A DNA stretch of 32,000 nucleotides, taken from the NCBI GenBank assembly GCA_964354495.1, contig CAYHAA010000007.1:60001-92000 (forward strand), written 5' to 3'. A program made the position numbers and the translations under genes. Below the pieces are notes generated by a model. It made no database searches, was not told the origin of the DNA, and saw nothing but the letters and a program-made list of their open reading frames with translations. The DNA comes from an uncultured archaeon (GTDB taxonomy: Archaea > Asgardarchaeota > Thorarchaeia > Thorarchaeales > Thorarchaeaceae). Below, in pieces: positions 19,900-26,504 of the stretch (position 1 is the stretch's first letter; each line of letters starts with the position of its first letter).

Positions 19900-20181
19900 C
19901 TATGACTCTGCTCGTTGGCCGTTCTTCGCGAGCTCTTCTTGGATTGCACTCTCAAGCTTGGCTGTTGACACGTTCCCCTCAAAGTATTGAGAGCCCACAA
20001 GGACCCCCTGCCATGACACTCCAAGCTCTTTGGCCGTCTTGCTATTGGCTAAGTCCTCACTATACTCAACAACATCTCTGTACTTCCTAACAGCCTCGTA
20101 GATTCGTCCCAAGAAACCAGACACACTGCAGCTGCAGACCCCGACTGGCAGGAACACCTTTACCGCTACTTTTTCACTCAA
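19900..20181 (-). CDS. Small thioredoxin-fold/ArsD-like Cys protein
   Basis: VKVFLPVGVCSCS N-terminus and GVLVG beta-strand; directly downstream of acr3. Confidence 0.5.
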   Translation of the reverse strand: MSEKVAVKVFLPVGVCSCSVSGFLGRIYEAVRKYRDVVEYSEDLANSKTAKELGVSWQGVLVGSQYFEGNVSTAKLESAIQEELAKNGQRAES

Positions 20182-20209
20182 CTATTCTCACCTTGATGCA
20201 GTTATCTCG

Positions 20210-21259
20210 TTACATTGGTGTGCCTTTCCAGAATTCCTTCCTTCTGAGGTATTTGGAAAGGTATACCAACCCAAGCATAACCGGCACTTCCCAGAAAAGG
20301 CCCATTGTTGTTCCAAGAGCCGCGATGGATCCGACACCATACATCGAGATTGCTGTAGCAATGGCGATTTCAAAGTGACTAGAAGACCCAATGATCACAG
20401 TAATCGTTGCCTCTCTATAGGCGAGTCTTGCCAATCGAGTTATCAAAAGGCCATAGCTGACAGTTATCACAAAATGGAGCAATAGCGGAATTGAAACAAG
20501 TCCGAGCAGATCTGGATGTTCCAGCATTACAACGCCGTTCAGCGAGAAGAGCACAACTAACGTAGTCAGTAGAGCAACTAGGGCCAGTTTACCAACTGCT
20601 GGCTGATACTTCGTCGTGAACCAATCTTTTCCCTTCCAGTTCACAAGTGTCTTCCTTGTTACCAATCCAAGAAGCATTGGGGCACCAATAAAGAATGTTA
20701 CAGAGATGACTAATAGCACGCGGTTAATAGGAATGTTGGAAATTCCAGTGAGTATTGCTACTACGGGTGCATAGAGCACTAGAATCGTTGCCGTGTTTAG
20801 AGTTGTGTTCACAATATTCTGTTCTTGGTTTCCCTCAGCGAGATATCCCCAGACCAGCACCATTGCTGTACAGGGACTGGACGCAAGCAATATCACAGCT
20901 ACAATCAACTGCTCATTGCCTGCCAGAAAGGTCCGAGCAAGTAGATATCCAACAATTGGTGCTACTATCCAATTCGATACGAGTGTGATTATTATTGGTT
21001 TAGGATTTCTTCTGAGTTTTCTTAATTCAGATCCTTGAATATTAAGCATGGCTGGATACATCATCAAGAATAGACATATCCCGATTGGGACAGATATGCC
21101 GGCAATCTGCCATGAGTCTATAGCTTCACCAATCCCGGGCACTACTTGGGACAGGAATATTCCCAACACCATGCAAATGCCAATCCACAGTGGCAAGTAC
21201 TTCTCAAATGTACTGAGCTTCTTCCCGCTTGCTACTTGATTTGGTTGGCTAGTTGACAA
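20210..21259 (-). CDS. acr3: ACR3-family arsenite efflux transporter
   Basis: LMMYPAM, SPCTAMVLVWG (conserved Cys), SSHFEIAIATA and EVPVML; ~10 TM. Confidence 0.93.
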   Translation of the reverse strand: MSTSQPNQVASGKKLSTFEKYLPLWIGICMVLGIFLSQVVPGIGEAIDSWQIAGISVPIGICLFLMMYPAMLNIQGSELRKLRRNPKPIIITLVSNWIVAPIVGYLLARTFLAGNEQLIVAVILLASSPCTAMVLVWGYLAEGNQEQNIVNTTLNTATILVLYAPVVAILTGISNIPINRVLLVISVTFFIGAPMLLGLVTRKTLVNWKGKDWFTTKYQPAVGKLALVALLTTLVVLFSLNGVVMLEHPDLLGLVSIPLLLHFVITVSYGLLITRLARLAYREATITVIIGSSSHFEIAIATAISMYGVGSIAALGTTMGLFWEVPVMLGLVYLSKYLRRKEFWKGTPM

Positions 21260-21332
21260 TTTTCGGTCACCAACTATTCGTCTTATGCGTTGTGTGAGGG
21301 GGTGCTGTGAGCCGATTGACTGGAACGCATAG

Positions 21333-21356
21333 AAATATCGGATAATCTCGATATTT
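21333..21356. promoter_or_regulatory. Putative ArsR operator upstream of acr3
   Basis: Inverted repeat AAATATCG-N8-CGATATTT adjoining the minus-strand AAAAGTTAAATA promoter element. Confidence 0.75.
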
Positions 21357-21443
21357 AACTTTTATGTTGTTTGCGACCTGACTGCTGTTATCTAGGTTCT
21401 GAAAACAATCTGCAAGAATTGGTAGTATCTCCAAATCTCGAGT

Positions 21444-21740
21444 CTATCTGCTTGTCTTCTCATCAGCAAGTGAGCGCAGATCACGAATCATGCTACTGAT
21501 GCGTGAATCACTGAGCTTGTAGAGTTTCTTGGTACCATCGCGTCTAACAGAAAGAATACCCGATCTCACAAGTTGACTCAAGTATGAAGACACAGTAGAC
21601 TGTGAGAGACCCATTTCCGGATAGATCTCACATTGACAGCGTTCACCATCTTCCAAGAGCTCCACGATTTTCAGCCGTTCGTGATTCGATAGTGCCTTGT
21701 GGAACTGCATTCGCCATTCCATTCTTCTGTCAATATCCAT
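21444..21740 (-). CDS. arsR: ArsR/SmtB-family repressor
   Basis: KALSNHERLKIV, RCQCEI Cys pair and LSQSTVSSYL HTH. Confidence 0.9.
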   Translation of the reverse strand: MDIDRRMEWRMQFHKALSNHERLKIVELLEDGERCQCEIYPEMGLSQSTVSSYLSQLVRSGILSVRRDGTKKLYKLSDSRISSMIRDLRSLADEKTSR

Positions 21741-21811
21741 TTGCTATCCTACTCGCTGGTATCGATTAATCCTTGTTTACAAGAACACCGACAATAACAC
21801 ATTTCGGATAT

Positions 21812-21819
21812 CGATATTT
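21812..21819. promoter_or_regulatory. Operator half-site at the arsR promoter
   Basis: CGATATTT next to minus-strand CTATATAC TATA-like box (21820-21827). Confidence 0.5.
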
Positions 21820-21977
21820 GTATATAGCGATTATTACCGAACCATCAATAATTAGTCATATTTCTATACAGATTATGAAGGCCGGGATACGTTTCCGCGT
21901 GTTCTTATGTGGTTGTCTTCAAAGATGGACCTCAAGAGGGCATAACGCAAGCATCATTGGTCACCATAGAAACACTG

Positions 21978-22001
21978 ATATATCGAAATAATCCGATATT
22001 T
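21978..22001. promoter_or_regulatory. Putative ArsR operator upstream of the HdrA-N/DGC operon
   Basis: ATATATCGAAATAATCCGATATTT matches the reverse complement of 21333-21356 at 21 of 24 positions. Confidence 0.75.
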
Positions 22002-22018
22002 GATTGGACTTGTCCACA

Positions 22019-22396
22019 ATGAGTTCTGAAAAACCTGCCTTCATAATGTGTGTATGCACAGGCAAATGTCCGGGCTTTGCGAAGATGGACATCTGGGATT
22101 TTATCAACACGGTTAGAATGACTCTTCCTGTTAAGTATGGAGTCATTCATCCACAACTCTGTGAACGCGATGGTGATGCCTACCTTGAGAATACCCTGAC
22201 ACCTGGAGAAAAAGTGTTCGTTGCTGGCTGTGCTCCTGCAATGCAATACAAGCTCTTCCGTGATTCATTCGCAAAGAAGGGACTCGACGTGAAGAAGGAT
22301 CTTGTACCTATTGACGTGCGTGACATGACCACTGATGAGGCAGTAGAGAAGGTTTCACAGGAGTTGAAAAAGCATGGATATGATGTCGAAGGATGA
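22019..22396 (+). CDS. Stand-alone HdrA N-terminal-domain-like protein
   Basis: FIMCVCTGKC, HPQLC, FVAGCAP and PIDVRD resemble the HdrA N-terminal Fe-S domain. Confidence 0.7.
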   Translation: MSSEKPAFIMCVCTGKCPGFAKMDIWDFINTVRMTLPVKYGVIHPQLCERDGDAYLENTLTPGEKVFVAGCAPAMQYKLFRDSFAKKGLDVKKDLVPIDVRDMTTDEAVEKVSQELKKHGYDVEG

Positions 22397-22688
22397 GTCG
22401 AAGCCCAGTACAACTTTCATGGGCGTCAGTCGAGAGAAAATACCATGGTGGCCAATCGTAGACCTAGGGAAATGCGATGGCTGCAATGGTGAGTACGACT
22501 GCCTGAAGTTCTGTCCTCATAGAGTCTACAAGCCGCTTGAGGACTCCTCCAGAATCGAGGTTGAGAACCCATACAACTGCGTGGTCTTTTGCACAGCCTG
22601 TAGTAAGATGTGTCCTAGGGATGCAATCTCCTTTCCTGCAAAAGCGAACATCCTGAAGATCATCAAAGAAGAACGTGCCAACAAATGA
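22374..22688 (+). CDS. Ferredoxin-like 4Fe-4S dicluster protein
   Basis: CDGC..DCLKFCP and CVVFCTACSKMCP. Confidence 0.85.
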   Translation: MDMMSKDESKPSTTFMGVSREKIPWWPIVDLGKCDGCNGEYDCLKFCPHRVYKPLEDSSRIEVENPYNCVVFCTACSKMCPRDAISFPAKANILKIIKEERANK

Positions 22689-23536
22689 GGTCGATGCGAG
22701 TGGTGAAGAAATACATTCTACCCTGTGCAGGCTATGACCGTCCGGGTGGAGAGGTTTCTAGGGCTGTTGCAGAGCAACTAGCTAGGAATCGTGACGATGT
22801 TGTAATTGGAAGCATGGGCGCGCTATACAAGGAACGTCCCGGTGAGATGCGTGACTTCAGGGCCTCAGAGGTGATTTGCCTCGATGGTTGTGGAACACAC
22901 TGTGCCTCGGAACTTGCGATTGCACGGGGACGGAATGATGGAGCAGTTGTTTCTATTCCTGAGGCTGCAGGTTCAGGTGACGATTTTGAACAAAAGGTCC
23001 GCCATGTTATCGACGCCATGTCAAAGCATCTAGAAAAGAGAAAGGCGAAGGCCTCGCCCTCAACCAAAGAGATCTCCTCATTCTCTCTCGAATATCTTGA
23101 GGAAAAATTCGACAAGTTCACGCTTAGAGTCGCCAAAGGTATGTTGTACTCCGATAACGACTTCTGGGTCAGGATTGAAGGCGACAATGTCCGGATTGGT
23201 GCTTCAGATTTTCTTCAGCAGATGATATCTGATGTATATTATGTGAATCTCGTCGAGCCCGGCCATCATGTCGATATGTTTGATGACGCAGGGAAGATGG
23301 AGTCGACGAAGATCTTAGTGGAGATAATCGTCCCCCTGACTGGAACCATAATCGAAGTCAACAGCTCATTGGAGAATAGTCCAGAACTGATTAACGAGAG
23401 CCCATATGATAAGGGATGGTTCTACGTCATAAGACCGGACGACATTGACGAACTGGAACTGCTCAGGGATGCATCAAGCTATTTGCTTTACGCCTTGGCA
23501 AAGGCAAAAGAAGAGATTGGAAAGAAGGTGGAATAG
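22685..23536 (+). CDS. DGC-domain / glycine cleavage H (lipoyl carrier)-like fusion
   Basis: N-terminal PCAG..LDGCGTHCA; C-terminal VRIGASDF..MESTKILVEIIVPLTGTIIEVNSSLENSPELINESPYDKGW with lipoyl Lys. Confidence 0.85.
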   Translation: MRSMRVVKKYILPCAGYDRPGGEVSRAVAEQLARNRDDVVIGSMGALYKERPGEMRDFRASEVICLDGCGTHCASELAIARGRNDGAVVSIPEAAGSGDDFEQKVRHVIDAMSKHLEKRKAKASPSTKEISSFSLEYLEEKFDKFTLRVAKGMLYSDNDFWVRIEGDNVRIGASDFLQQMISDVYYVNLVEPGHHVDMFDDAGKMESTKILVEIIVPLTGTIIEVNSSLENSPELINESPYDKGWFYVIRPDDIDELELLRDASSYLLYALAKAKEEIGKKVE

Positions 23537-23539
23537 AGA

Positions 23540-23923
23540 TTGAAGAAAGTAGTCATTCCATGTAGTGGAATGGGAAAAGCATTGGGAGCTGTCACACGTG
23601 AGACTATCCCACTCTTGCCAGACTCCAAGAGTCCCCATGAGTATAGGACAGTCTGTCTGCCATTGCTGATGACCGATGATGATGAGTCAAAACGAATAGT
23701 GCTAGAATCAGCTGTCTATACGATCGATGGCTGTCCAAAGAAGTGTGCGTCAACTGTAGTCAAACATGTTGGAGCAACGCCAGTCATGGAGATACTAGCG
23801 GCGAGAGTTCTTGCAGAGCATAGAGAGCACAAACCCGAAACTGTACTTGACGTCGGAGATGGTGGACGCCTTCTTGCGAAAGATATCGTTGAGATAATCG
23901 CGAACGATGGAGGGACAGATTGA
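23540..23923 (+). CDS. DGC-domain putative zinc-binding protein
   Basis: PCSG..VCLP..IDGCPKKCA. Confidence 0.85.
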   Translation: MKKVVIPCSGMGKALGAVTRETIPLLPDSKSPHEYRTVCLPLLMTDDDESKRIVLESAVYTIDGCPKKCASTVVKHVGATPVMEILAARVLAEHREHKPETVLDVGDGGRLLAKDIVEIIANDGGTD

Positions 23924-24327
23924 TGACATTCAAACCGAAGGTTGGTCTAATCTCGTGTAGTGGTGAAGCATGTCCTGGAGGGAGAATCTCACGTGCTGCA
24001 ACACTTGAGGTCCTTCATCACCTGAAACCAACTGACACAGTCACGATATGTCTCCCACTATTCCTTGCCGGAGATGAGGGAGAGCGCGGATTTGCAAGCG
24101 TCTTTCCAACTATCACGGTGGATGGGTGCAGTAAACTCTGCGCAGCAAAGGGCACAGCCAAATATAGTAGCGAGCCTGCTGTGAGAATAAACATCGAGGA
24201 CTATACAGGTGAGGGATGTACAAGTACTGATGAAGAGATGCGGACACAGAGTGACAACAATCTGATCAAGAGAGTCGCCCAAGACTTGGCAGCTCATGTC
24301 GATCATCTTCGACAAGAGTGGGAGTGA
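23920..24327 (+). CDS. DGC-domain putative zinc-binding protein
   Basis: SCSGEAC..ICLP..VDGCSKLCA. Confidence 0.85.
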   Translation: MMTFKPKVGLISCSGEACPGGRISRAATLEVLHHLKPTDTVTICLPLFLAGDEGERGFASVFPTITVDGCSKLCAAKGTAKYSSEPAVRINIEDYTGEGCTSTDEEMRTQSDNNLIKRVAQDLAAHVDHLRQEWE

Positions 24328-24336
24328 TCCAGTGTC

Positions 24337-25529
24337 TTGAAGGGTAAACTTCAAACACGCGCGCTCGATTCAGCTATCTCTAGCTTCGATATCACGCTCC
24401 TGAGCCGACTAATCAGAGATGCGGCGACAAGCGGTCATATTCGTGATACATGTGACTACCTGCATATCGCCATGGGAAGTGCACATTCCATTAGCTCTGG
24501 AGTCTTGCGAGTAGCTGTCGTTTCGGCGTTTGAAATGTATGACTTCAAAGTTCTTGATGTTGATCCTCTTGAGATTCTCTCTGGACTTCAGGACCTTGAA
24601 CCCCAGGACATGATAGAATCTGCACGAAGAGCAATCATGTCTGCACTTGAGTTTCAAGTCCATAGGAGAAACACATTCTTTCTTGCAGTGGACAGGCTCC
24701 ACAGTTCTGAAGCCGCAGTCCTTGTCAAGGATATCATCAACGCCCGGAGAACTGAGTTGGAGGAGCTCTGTCACAGCAGTCCAACTCTAGAGCAACTCGC
24801 TGCCACTTACTATGGTTTTCAGTTTCTGACCTCTCAAATCAGAAGATCGGAGCTTGGTGAAGACACTCAGAAGTTATTCGAATGCCTTGAACTCGATACC
24901 GCTCAGGATGTCAAAGTACCCTCGAATGCATTGAAACCCGAGGCGGTCGTATTTCGAAATGTATCCGCGCAGACAGATGAGCTTCTCAGAAACACTCTCT
25001 ATCTGACTGGGTATGACTCGGGCGAGCGGGCAAAGTCGGCTGCCTGTCTTGGAGAGCTGGCTGATCCCAGAGCTGGACTTTACCTCTCAAAGGCGACGAG
25101 GGATGAGTACTCATGGGTCCGGAAGGCTGCTGTGTCTGCTCTTGGGCGAATAAGGTTCCTCGAAGACCCCGGGTGTGTTGTTGATGTCTTGAAGGATCTT
25201 GACGAAGGAACCAGAAATGCGGCATTGGAAAGCGTCTGTTCCGTGGGACCCAGGCTGTTCCTCTACTCCTCAATACTCTAGAGAATTACAGGGGCATCTC
25301 CTATCCTGAAGCGATTGAGGCAGCCAAGAAGGCTCACCCGCGAGCCTTGGACAATCTCGAGGCAGTATTGCAGTATCACTCTCGTACAGCCAGAGCCTTG
25401 GCCGCAAACGCACTAGGTAGAATCGGTGACAAGAGAGCCATCTCAGCACTTGAGAGAGCTATGCAGGATGAAGAATTCGAAGTGAGATCTGCAGCACAAG
25501 ACGCGCTCATTGAAATGAAAAGACTGTGA
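24337..25529 (+). pseudogene. HEAT/PBS-lyase repeat protein split by a frameshift near 25249-25251
   Basis: Frame of 24337 reads ..RNAALESVCSVG; the alternate frame continues QAVPLLLNTLE..AANALGRIGDKRAISAL..VRSAAQDAL to the stop at 25529. Confidence 0.7.
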
Positions 25530-25640
25530 TGTTAGTAGCATCACGTGGAATCTCACGGCTCTTTCCTGCAGCAACAAGAAAAGCCAATCGAAGTTGACCA
25601 CAGGTCACCTCGCAGGGATTAACAGTCACTCACATATGCT

Positions 25641-26405
25641 TCAGATGATTCTCATCAAAATCATGACCGCAATCACCCACACTACAATGCCGAGCCCGGC
25701 CTTAATCTTTTGAGCTTGTATCCTCATGCTGGTTCTCGCCCCGAGATTCCCACCGATGAGGACGACAATGCCAGTCACCAAAATCAAGGGAATATCGAAA
25801 GCATGAAATGCCGCATGGCCAAGTAGACCGGAGAATGCTGAGAAGGATACAATCGCATGCGACGATCCTGCCGCGAACTTTGTAGGGTACTTGCAGATAT
25901 AGATCAGGAATGGAACGATTAGCACTCCGCCGCCAATTCCTAGCAAGCCCGATATGAGTCCTACACCGAAACTGAATAGCACGATGAGTGGGTACATGGT
26001 AGTGACCACGCGTTTTGGAAATTCATCCTCAATCTTTCCCCGTTCCCAAAACGTATAGACCATCCTCCCTCCGAGACCAGCCAAGAAGAACACAAACAAC
26101 CACAACAAGAAGGTTTCATCAACAAATACAACTAAGGCTCCGCCCATAAAAGCGCCCAGGCAGACACCAGGTATGAATAGGAAGGACGTCCTCAAGTCTA
26201 TCATCTTCTTGCGATACAAGACGTAACCCGCAGACAGCGATGTTATTAGAGTCAACACTAAGGATGTGGATGTGGAAATCGATACCGCATAGCCAAGTAG
26301 AATCAACAGCGGGGAGTACATCGACCCTCCGCCCTGACCAAACATCGAGAACACAAAAGCTATCAGAAAGACAAAGATGGTAGTGTATAGAAGTACAATA
26401 TCCAT
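25641..26405 (-). CDS. TauE/SafE-family sulfite exporter
   Basis: GQGGGSMYSP and GLLGIGGGVLIVP repeats, AAGSSH, multi-TM; likely ATG at 26405. Confidence 0.88.
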   Translation of the reverse strand: MDIVLLYTTIFVFLIAFVFSMFGQGGGSMYSPLLILLGYAVSISTSTSLVLTLITSLSAGYVLYRKKMIDLRTSFLFIPGVCLGAFMGGALVVFVDETFLLWLFVFFLAGLGGRMVYTFWERGKIEDEFPKRVVTTMYPLIVLFSFGVGLISGLLGIGGGVLIVPFLIYICKYPTKFAAGSSHAIVSFSAFSGLLGHAAFHAFDIPLILVTGIVVLIGGNLGARTSMRIQAQKIKAGLGIVVWVIAVMILMRII

Positions 26406-26504
26406 ATTGATGCACACCCGAGGGTTTTCGGCAAACTGGACTGAGCTGGTTGGTCAATCAGTGGAAACGCTGCCCTTTGGGATTCGAAGGGTTCCAGCAT
26501 GACG

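Follow-up and report, generated by a model that had tools for sequence, protein, structure and literature searches.

A stretch of 32,000 nucleotides from an uncultured archaeon of the Thorarchaeaceae (Asgardarchaeota; GenBank assembly GCA_964354495.1, contig CAYHAA010000007.1, positions 60,001 to 92,000), hereafter the window, in whose numbering coordinates are given, carries the genes of an ArsR/SmtB repressor and of an ACR3 arsenite efflux permease beside a plus-strand cassette of five genes. These code for an HdrA-N-like protein (HdrAN), a dicluster ferredoxin (Fdx), a fusion of a DGC domain with a GcvH-type lipoyl domain (DGC-GcvH), and two further DGC proteins (DGC2 and DGC3). The question raised by this locus is what such a cassette does next to an arsenite exporter. 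With regard to its control, the sequences strongly support an ArsR regulon of the arsenite, As(III), type with two arms, namely acr3 with the gene of a small cysteine protein (CysP93), and the cassette operon. With regard to its function, the reading tentatively favoured, with a little less than an even chance of being right, is that the cassette forms a ferredoxin-fed electron/dithiol relay that ends on protein-bound lipoate and serves arsenic handling, As(III) exiting via ACR3.

Operators and the two arms of the predicted ArsR regulon

The minus-strand arsR gene (21444-21740; PF01022, E 2.1e-12; NF033788, 69.2 bits against a cut-off of 55) codes for a repressor with a C35-Q-C37 pair that is kept in 32/32 cassette-linked orthologues and that, placed relative to the helix-turn-helix, we take to be the alpha-3 As(III)-type site (ELCVCDL-type). 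The operator core is a 24-bp palindrome, ATATCG-N8-CGATAT, present in front of each arm. Specifically, operator A (AAATATCG-N8-CGATATTT; 21333-21356) is a perfect palindrome located 74 nt 5' of the acr3 start, and operator B (ATATATCG-N8-CGATATTT; 21978-22001) precedes the ATG of HdrAN, with which the cassette begins, by 18 nt and overlaps an AT-rich, TATA-like stretch. When the pattern AWATATCG-N8-CGATATWT is searched with up to 2 mismatches, the window contains exactly these two sites and 100 shuffles contain none; with up to 1 mismatch, the whole 3.3-Mb genome has just the same two. The initial annotation, made on the letters of the window, had reported the same 24-bp operator before both arms, and this observation holds for an element that is unique in the genome and kept in relatives.

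Across 42 Asgard neighbourhoods of the same gene set (594 kb, scanned for ATATCG-N8-CGATAT with at most 1 mismatch), 27 core sites are present; ten shuffles gave 0-4. About 15 other Asgard loci carry the core 19-51 nt 5' of the HdrAN start, and some of these cassette-proximal sites are found where the cassette immediately follows a co-directional ACR3 gene; in four Asgard loci (L006, L013, L016, and L020), sites lie 5' of ACR3. One perfect site is found in a distant Asgard family, in which the fusion protein is only 26% identical. The operator is nearly absent from a set of mostly bacterial cassette loci (841 kb, 5 sites, 3 of which in Asgard loci), and the motif is therefore lineage-specific. 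The conserved sites amount to a phylogenetic footprint, and the prediction that one arsenite-type repressor controls both arms is strongly supported.

A further palindrome, ATATCGATAT, is located 5' of arsR (21801-21823); it consists of half-sites without the 8-nt spacer and is not a full operator.

On the minus strand, acr3 (20210-21259) codes for a permease that scores 282.3 bits with TIGR00832 against a cut-off of 282.8, over positions 1-326 of 327, and that matches SBF (E 5.8e-41). It is the single ACR3 match in the genome, and its translation shows the motifs SPCTAMV and WEVPVM, of which the SPCTAMV Cys and the EVPV Glu are presumably functional residues of the transport path. The CysP93 gene (19900-20181, minus strand; 93 aa with two Cys) lies 28 nt 3' of acr3. 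On the plus strand, HdrAN (22019-22396; 125 aa), Fdx (22374-22688), DGC-GcvH (22685-23536), DGC2 (23540-23923), and DGC3 (23920-24327) follow one another with a 23-nt overlap, a 4-nt overlap, a 3-nt gap, and a 4-nt overlap, respectively, the start of the HdrAN gene being most likely ATG 22019 and not TTG 22004. These calls derive from the listing of open reading frames (ORFs) and from Pfam and NCBIfam scans of the window proteins, which recover every gene named in the initial annotation and, as it had claimed, no arsC on searching the window. Its description of an arsR divergon stands in part: arsR is divergent from the cassette, but co-directional with acr3 and the gene of the Cys protein.

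Distribution and arsenic neighbourhood of the cassette

Full-length DGC-GcvH copies were sought in 301 Asgard genomes and occur in many Asgard families; 40 neighbourhoods were mapped with the window proteins, and 39 of them hold the core. The fusion has about 100 homologues, mostly in Thorarchaeota. In a second, species-level survey, the HdrAN alignment was scanned against one genome per prokaryotic species: relatives are encoded in 467 stretches, the best 80 of which were analysed, their adjacent ORFs being clustered and then named with Pfam and NCBIfam. These best 80 loci belong to Asgard archaea and to at least seven bacterial phyla, with bacterial carriers (59-72% HdrAN identity) among Actinomycetota, Acidobacteriota, Bacteroidales, Armatimonadota, Bacillota, and Pirellulales, together with one metagenome-assembled genome of Alphaproteobacteria. 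The core order HdrAN-Fdx-DGC-GcvH-DGC-DGC is kept in 39/39 Asgard and in all 50 bacterial loci.

Arsenic genes accompany the cassette at most loci. Among the 39 Asgard loci, 28 have ArsR and 22 have ACR3, and in 11 ACR3 is the gene immediately 5' of the cassette on the same strand. At species level, one or more ars-type neighbours are found at 74 of the 80 loci, and the remaining six are all truncated by contig ends. The neighbours include ArsR (63/80 loci), ACR3 (37/80), ArsG (28/80), ArsF (22/80), an ArsE-type thioredoxin-like protein (19/80), an LplA-type lipoate ligase (16/80), thioredoxin-type ArsC (13/80), ArsM (11/80), and HgcA (6/80). The initial annotation had called for such a gene-neighbourhood survey, with a lack of co-occurrence as grounds for refutation; these grounds fall away, as the association of the cassette with arsR and acr3 extends to many other genomes.

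These neighbours bear on the proposal that the cassette is unrelated to arsenic, that it acts as an sHdr/LbpA-like sulfur relay or as an Lpd-DlaT-AhpD-AhpC-like lipoyl system against peroxide and thiol stress, and that it merely travels with ArsR-family regulators sensing other signals. Indeed, ArsR/SmtB regulators respond to many signals, GcvH-like lipoate-binding proteins serve sulfur oxidation in sHdr-LbpA, and a TauE exporter gene adjoins the cassette in the window. Moreover, AnvM of Pseudomonas aeruginosa, a structural match of DGC3 described below, is linked to oxidative stress (PMC6650552). This proposal is nevertheless very unlikely to hold: the neighbours are specifically arsenic genes in the 74 loci mentioned, the As(III)-type CxC is present in all 32 ArsR orthologues, ACR3 stands under the same predicted operator, TauE is near the cassette in only 1/39 Asgard loci, and HdrB/C (CCG), DsrE, TusA, and peroxiredoxin are not among the 20 most recurrent annotated neighbour families of the 80 loci. 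The sHdr/LbpA-type alternative that the initial annotation had kept in view thus finds no neighbourhood support.

Two further neighbours recur. HgcA (NF040863, 444 bits; L096:13967-15004), the mercury-methylation corrinoid protein, is encoded within 8 kb of the cassette in 6/50 bacterial loci, namely L096 and five other Bacteroidales/Prolixibacteraceae loci, and the cassette ferredoxin of the window obtains its best scores against HgcB-type ferredoxin models, below their cut-off. A rhodanese-homology protein recurs beside the cassette in Bacteroidales (L124:7517-7939 and 15 other bacterial loci); its presumed active-site loop, ADAAGLHS, which was located by eye and not by alignment, has no Cys.

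Within the window's own taxonomic family (81 genomes, 16 genera), the cassette is patchy, as expected for an accessory module: 25 genomes, spanning 13 of the 16 genera, have it. ACR3 is encoded in 65/81 of these family genomes (above the TIGR00832 cut-off in 55/81); 16 of the 25 genomes with the cassette have an ACR3 no more than 7 kb away from it, often the only ACR3 that they encode. The initial annotation had pictured the cassette as acting in place of ArsC and thioredoxin, and neither half of this picture is supported. An ArsC-like gene, the only one of the window's genome, is located elsewhere (C27:17180-17563) as a single LMW-phosphatase-fold gene (LMW, low-molecular-weight), its best model being the thioredoxin-type ArsC (117 bits, below the equivalog cut-off). 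ArsC-like genes are found in 21/25 cassette-bearing versus 32/56 cassette-free family genomes, a comparison that is descriptive only because the genomes are kin, and arsC stands beside the cassette in 13/50 bacterial loci. Replacement of ArsC by phyletic complementarity is rejected, as ArsC-like genes co-occur with the cassette in the family; as for thioredoxin, the thioredoxin-fold CysP93 itself belongs to the system. The cassette is an optional add-on to ACR3, not an ArsC substitute.

The ArsC-like gene of the genome (G000:C27:17160-17913; locus L140:5160-5913) ends its contig and adjoins a 95-aa ORF on the same strand. The closed Thorarchaeota chromosome CP070761 carries, 5 kb 5' of a complete cassette, a compact acr3 - DGC3-like - CysP93 - arsR unit (L006:127-2383) that is devoid of Fe-S and lipoyl genes and in which the DGC3-like gene appears split (two tblastn pieces). 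Additional DGC2-DGC3-like pairs are present in loci L024, L034, L043, and L047.

Cassette proteins and the proposed dithiol relay

HdrAN has no Pfam match. Its profile matches the N-terminal Fe-S domain of three solved HdrAs (7bkb, 9sfi, and 5odc) over about residues 5-93, with the best match to residues 8-93 of 7bkb_A (E 3.3e-4), and five of its Cys (C11, C13, C17, C48, and C71) are invariant. It is the best-conserved protein of the cassette, with 49-85% identity across Asgard and the 59-72% to bacteria given above, and is weakly similar to MvhD (hhalign probability 21%). HdrAN ends at residue 125 and scores 14.5 bits with the HdrA model NF041778, the cut-off of which is 1400; judged by its sequence, it is a domain homologue of HdrA only, without the flavin adenine dinucleotide (FAD)/thioredoxin-reductase-like core and the ferredoxin domains. 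The ferredoxin, which matches Fer4 families, has two [4Fe-4S]-type motifs with eight Cys, of which C34, C43, C47, C69, C73, C76, and C80 are present in 42/42 sequences and C37 in 41/42. HdrAN and the ferredoxin are both present at every locus examined (about 90 cassette loci), and the retention of two dedicated Fe-S proteins in every copy argues for a continuing electron flow and not for static binding.

The three DGC domains score 37.5, 46.4, and 54.2 bits with PF08859 against a threshold of 27 (E 2.6e-9 for DGC-GcvH, 4.6e-12 for DGC2, and 1.7e-14 for DGC3) and contain the DGC motif. In each of them, a Cys ends beta-1 and is followed by Gly and a basic residue, and later by a CxxxC. The invariant residues are C8, C39, C65, C69, K13, and R20 in DGC2 and C13, C44, C70, C74, E16, and R25 in DGC3, so arranged that the Cys of both proteins stand after beta-1, after beta-2, in the DGC motif after beta-3, and four residues further. 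In the fused domain, C69 and C73 occur in all sequences and C14 in all but six, and the fourth Cys is located at the beta-2 position in 54 sequences, at C65, four residues before the DGC cysteine, in 38 (including that of the window), and at both in 1. This mutually exclusive swap suggests, from the alignment, that four ligands are needed around a single site.

By sequence, the DGC domains match no solved structure below E 0.6. The AlphaFold2 model of DGC3 (predicted local distance difference test, pLDDT, 87.7) is a flavodoxin-like sandwich, the protein atlas returns solely "zinc-binding protein family" clusters for it, and its best Swiss-Prot fold match is AnvM (PA3880) of P. aeruginosa (E 1.6e-4, template modelling score, TM, 0.62, identity 15%). 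Anaerobic conditions induce AnvM, and no other Cys of the P. aeruginosa proteome is as sensitive to peroxide as its Cys44 (PMC6650552). In an exhaustive VIA search with DGC3, the uncharacterised 3pu6 comes first (Z 8.6), followed by lumazine synthase and transketolase C-domains. An ArsC-type fold was considered and rejected, ArsC standing at Z 6.3, rank 42, amid generic flavodoxin-like folds, and kinship of DGC with MvhD or HdrA-N (hhalign probabilities of 0.25% and 1.2%) is unsupported by sequence.

The fold bears most directly on a rival in which the cassette is a ferredoxin-dependent reductase of pentavalent arsenic, that is, of arsenate, methylarsenate, or the thioarsenates typical of sulfidic sediments: the DGC Cys would attack the arsenical, the lipoyl dithiol would give two electrons, the Fe-S chain would re-reduce the dithiol, and ACR3 would export the As(III). 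The electron-input proteins are dedicated and invariably present, ACR3 is often the first gene of the cassette operon in Asgard loci, and the ArsM and ArsE/F/G neighbours suggest organoarsenical chemistry; in addition, the best Foldseek match of DGC3 in the PDB is an arsenate reductase of the LMW protein tyrosine phosphatase (PTP) type, 8p5n (E 3.3e-3, TM 0.47), and the order of Cys, Gly, basic residue, and CxxxC in each DGC domain fits such a use. The reductase is unlikely all the same, considering that the DGC domains have no CX5R loop and no LMWPc Pfam match, that the fold match to ArsC is unspecial, and that the cassette lacks phyletic complementarity with ArsC, which is encoded in this very genome and adjoins the cassette in the 13 bacterial loci already mentioned.

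DGC2 and DGC3 are predicted to act as a pair. Their predicted complex has a score of 0.63, the best control reaching 0.00; this score is attained by 58/80 solved complexes and by 2/110 mismatched pairs, a calibration that is only rough with own alignments used. The runs share at least 82% of contacts, with a partner pLDDT of 74 or more. At the predicted interface, the Cys-bearing faces meet (C39 and C69 of DGC2; C13, C44, and C74 of DGC3), with DGC2 C39 against DGC3 C13 and C74 and with the invariant R20 of DGC2 against the invariant E16 of DGC3. The model supports, but does not show, a DGC2-DGC3 heterodimer formed through the cysteine faces.

The GCV_H domain of the fusion (PF01597, 100.1 bits, E 1.1e-28) has its lipoyl Lys209 in the context E-S-T-K, and K209, the predicted lipoylation site, is kept in 111/112 fusion sequences. 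In addition to the LplA-type ligase genes that adjoin the cassette in 16/80 loci, three LplA-like genes are present elsewhere in the window's genome, which therefore has lipoylation capacity. A lipoamide dehydrogenase (E3) homologue of the genome is sub-threshold (333.8 bits versus 408.8), and E3 argues neither way. A glycine cleavage component was considered and rejected: the GcvH equivalog scores of the fusion are below the cut-offs (101.6 versus 115.85 and 105.9 versus 117 bits), none of gcvP, gcvT, and gcvL is among the ten scanned genes of the locus (Pfam, NCBIfam), and separate stand-alone GcvH-like matches exist in nearly all Asgard genomes searched. Selenocysteine in DGC-GcvH orthologues was likewise discarded, as the flagged in-frame TGAs precede the true start, within the overlapping ferredoxin frame.

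Several Thorarchaeota have tandem LplA-like genes beside the cassette (L051:12762-14614, L058:6994-8846, and L063:4649-6642), which code for a protein of 360-388 aa without family match and one of 257-275 aa with the LplA/B catalytic domain; they may constitute a two-part ligase dedicated to the fusion protein.

CysP93 has no Pfam or NCBIfam match, Pfam giving nothing even at E up to 1 in 12 members, and a PDB sequence search returns only weak thioredoxin-like tails. Its AlphaFold2 model (pLDDT 84, topology b-a-b-a-b-b-a) has thioredoxins as all of its top 50 Foldseek matches in the PDB (TM 0.5-0.7), and CysP93 is, according to this model, a minimal thioredoxin fold. It has no CxxC active site; an invariant CxC instead (C16-x-C18, 26/26 sequences) stands where thioredoxins carry CxxC. 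A CysP93 homologue follows DGC3 directly in 18/39 Asgard loci, and CysP93 is therefore the sixth gene of the cassette version usual in Thorarchaeota, moved to the acr3 side here. Relationship to ArsE/TIGR00412 (Thioredoxin_3) is not significant (hhalign 0.5%), and an identity as ArsD was rejected, the PF06953 signature (Cys12-Cys13-Cys18) and any Pfam match being absent and the motif being merely CxC.

Two rivals involve CysP93 or its counterparts. In the first, the cassette would only bind As(III), as a sink or as a metallochaperone that functions like ArsD: dihydrolipoate and the Cys of the DGC domains would take up As(III), and CysP93 would pass it to ACR3 with no net electron turnover, the Fe-S proteins merely priming the lipoyl group. 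Ligands of the As(III) type abound in every component (dithiol, CxC, and Cys3-4 sites), CysP93 directly follows acr3 in the window, ArsD is itself a cysteine-carrying thioredoxin fold, and the compact unit of L006 combines acr3, DGC, CysP93, and arsR without Fe-S genes. Furthermore, the only related mention that the literature yielded places a DGC gene, to which no function is assigned, in the ArsR-ArsP-ArsE operon of P. mercurii (10.1101/2022.10.17.512643). A sink of this kind is improbable, as the two Fe-S proteins of all of the roughly 90 inspected loci are hard to square with one-off priming and CysP93 gives no ArsD family signal.

In the second, arsenic would induce the cassette, which would work as a flavin-free disulfide reductase in the manner of ferredoxin:thioredoxin reductase and keep the thioredoxin-type partners of ArsC, ArsM, and ArsE-ArsG-ArsF reduced while arsenite blocks NADPH-dependent reductases. 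In line with this idea, an ArsE-type (TIGR00412) or CysP93 gene is located within 8 kb of the cassette in 36/80 loci, an ArsE-type CxxC gene abuts the HdrAN start in some Acidobacteriota loci (e.g., L080), ArsG (DsbD-like), ArsF, thioredoxin-type ArsC, and ArsM recur as neighbours, and ArsC-like genes co-occur with the cassette in Thorarchaeota. A dedicated disulfide reductase is quite unlikely, however: the Thorarchaeota partner has a CxC, which is a poor disulfide-reductant motif, ArsC is unlinked to the cassette in these archaea, and lipoate would be as sensitive to arsenite as the enzymes that it would supposedly replace.

In the favoured relay, low-potential electrons would enter via the dicluster ferredoxin and HdrAN and would then cross the DGC2-DGC3 pair, where the four-Cys sites of the two proteins lie opposite one another at the predicted interface and probably bind a metal or an Fe-S cluster. 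From there, the electrons would reach the H-protein-fused DGC domain and reduce its own lipoyl-Lys209 arm. Protein-bound dihydrolipoate and CysP93 would be the working dithiols of the regulon, binding As(III) and/or re-reducing arsenic-handling thiols, and As(III) would leave through ACR3. Lipoate is a prime target of As(III) and the textbook site of arsenite poisoning. That the cassette reduces, captures, or delivers arsenic, as proposed from the outset, is chemistry that we infer.

Several observations weigh against the relay. A lipoyl-based reductant is paradoxical under arsenic stress, unless As(III) binding is the point. The DGC domains have a generic fold and no detectable MvhD or HdrA-N homology, so that a role as Fe-S electron carriers is attributed to them by reasoning, and AnvM gave no metal after refolding (PMC6650552). 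ACR3 is encoded in 42/56 cassette-free family genomes and works without the cassette in many relatives. Lastly, the RNA evidence consists of a few short, near-identical metatranscriptome contigs and is uninformative on arsenic induction: in two assemblies, contigs match 22520-22699 and 25361-25529 with 0 mismatches, and a further contig matches 22524-22743 with 2 mismatches and spans the Fdx/DGC-GcvH junction, DNA carry-over being possible in all of these cases. No RNA dataset is listed as containing the 5.1-kb stretch.

Flanking genes and comparison with known systems

Downstream of DGC3, after a 9-nt gap, a plus-strand gene for a HEAT-repeat protein (24337-25281; HEAT_2, E 9.1e-7) is probably co-transcribed with the cassette, and a convergent minus-strand gene codes for a TauE/SafE-family exporter (25641-26417; PF01925, E 7.9e-43). 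The initial annotation had counted the HEAT gene in the operon and had TauE converge on its end. As conserved parts of the system, both fail: a HEAT homologue is near the cassette in only 2/39 Asgard loci and TauE in only 1/39, and the two genes are local neighbours outside the conserved unit. The ORF listing shows a second, small HEAT-repeat ORF on the same strand (25347-25529), in a different frame and with 65 nt between the two. The same two-piece layout is found beside the cassette in locus L022 (685-1572 and 412-585), and the two ORFs are therefore probably two genes of a conserved pair, rather than one gene broken by a local frameshift.

Arsenic resistance is among the best-mapped detoxification systems, but nearly all of this work concerns aerobes and facultatives that use NADPH, thioredoxin, and glutathione. 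To this picture the locus adds a strictly ordered five-gene cassette that resides in arsenic islands and is built around lipoate, and no published description of it was found in the searchable literature. If the electron-fed dithiol relay is true, it would explain how ferredoxin-based anaerobes power or protect arsenic chemistry, would give the DGC domain its first function, and would provide marker genes with which to follow the cycling of arsenic in anoxic sediments, paddy soils, and guts. A bolder version, in which a ferredoxin-driven, lipoate-dependent reductase acts directly on arsenic bound to protein thiols and represents a new enzyme system, is unlikely; such a reductase might turn thio- or methyl-arsenate into As(III), or As(III) into a more reduced volatile form. 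Protein-bound lipoate would thereby be used for the first time in detoxifying a metalloid, the DGC domain would have its first assigned function, and Asgard archaea and many anaerobic bacteria would share the system through horizontal transfer.

The Thorarchaeota copy is useful in its own right: with a single repressor and two unique operators, it is regulated in an unusually clean way, it shows the CxC thioredoxin-fold protein to be a sixth component, and several of its parts lend themselves directly to tests, namely the operator DNA, the lipoyl fusion, and the pair of DGC2 and DGC3. We believe the additions made here to be the operator that is unique in the genome and retained in relatives, the fold of the CxC protein and its place in the operon, the swap of the fourth Cys, the predicted DGC2-DGC3 interface, the link to AnvM, and the family-level test against ArsC replacement.

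Among known systems, the closest are the ars operons with accessory thiol proteins (ArsC-thioredoxin, ArsD-ArsA, ArsE/F/G). They share with this locus an As(III)-type ArsR, ACR3, a palindromic operator, and cysteine-based accessory proteins, as well as the location in arsenic islands with ArsC, ArsM, and ArsE/F/G. In contrast, the described accessory sets have no lipoyl carrier, no DGC protein with an assigned role, and no stand-alone HdrA N-domain, and five genes of this locus are without a named ars function. The sHdr-LbpA system likewise uses a GcvH-like lipoyl protein outside glycine cleavage, Hdr-related Fe-S modules, and, in some loci, an LplA-type ligase, whereas the cassette has the HdrA N-terminal domain only, with no FAD domain, in a context of arsenic and not of sulfur oxidation.

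With the HdrA N-domain of HdrABC-MvhAGD and Fdh-Hdr complexes (7bkb, 5odc, and 9sfi), the profile of HdrAN aligns over residues 4-89 and the Cys motifs coincide, namely CxC after beta-1, a Cys after beta-2, and (A/G)C(A/S)P after beta-3; unlike HdrA, HdrAN is a free protein of 125 aa without flavin, thioredoxin-reductase-like, and ferredoxin domains. To our knowledge, AnvM is the only DGC-domain protein that has been studied experimentally. It shares with DGC3 the DGC motif and the fold, along with anaerobic induction and an exceptionally reactive Cys on its own side, but it is described as regulating virulence and the anaerobic response via protein contacts (PMC6650552) and has no arsenic, lipoyl, or Fe-S partners. 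The H-protein of glycine cleavage has the same full GCV_H domain with the ES(V/T)K lipoyl lysine, and the cassette protein differs from it in being fused to a DGC domain and in scoring below the GcvH equivalog cut-offs. Lastly, the proposed relay parallels ferredoxin:thioredoxin reductase as a functional analogy only, with no kinship found in sequence or fold: in both, ferredoxin electrons would pass through an Fe-S centre to a disulfide/dithiol carrier.

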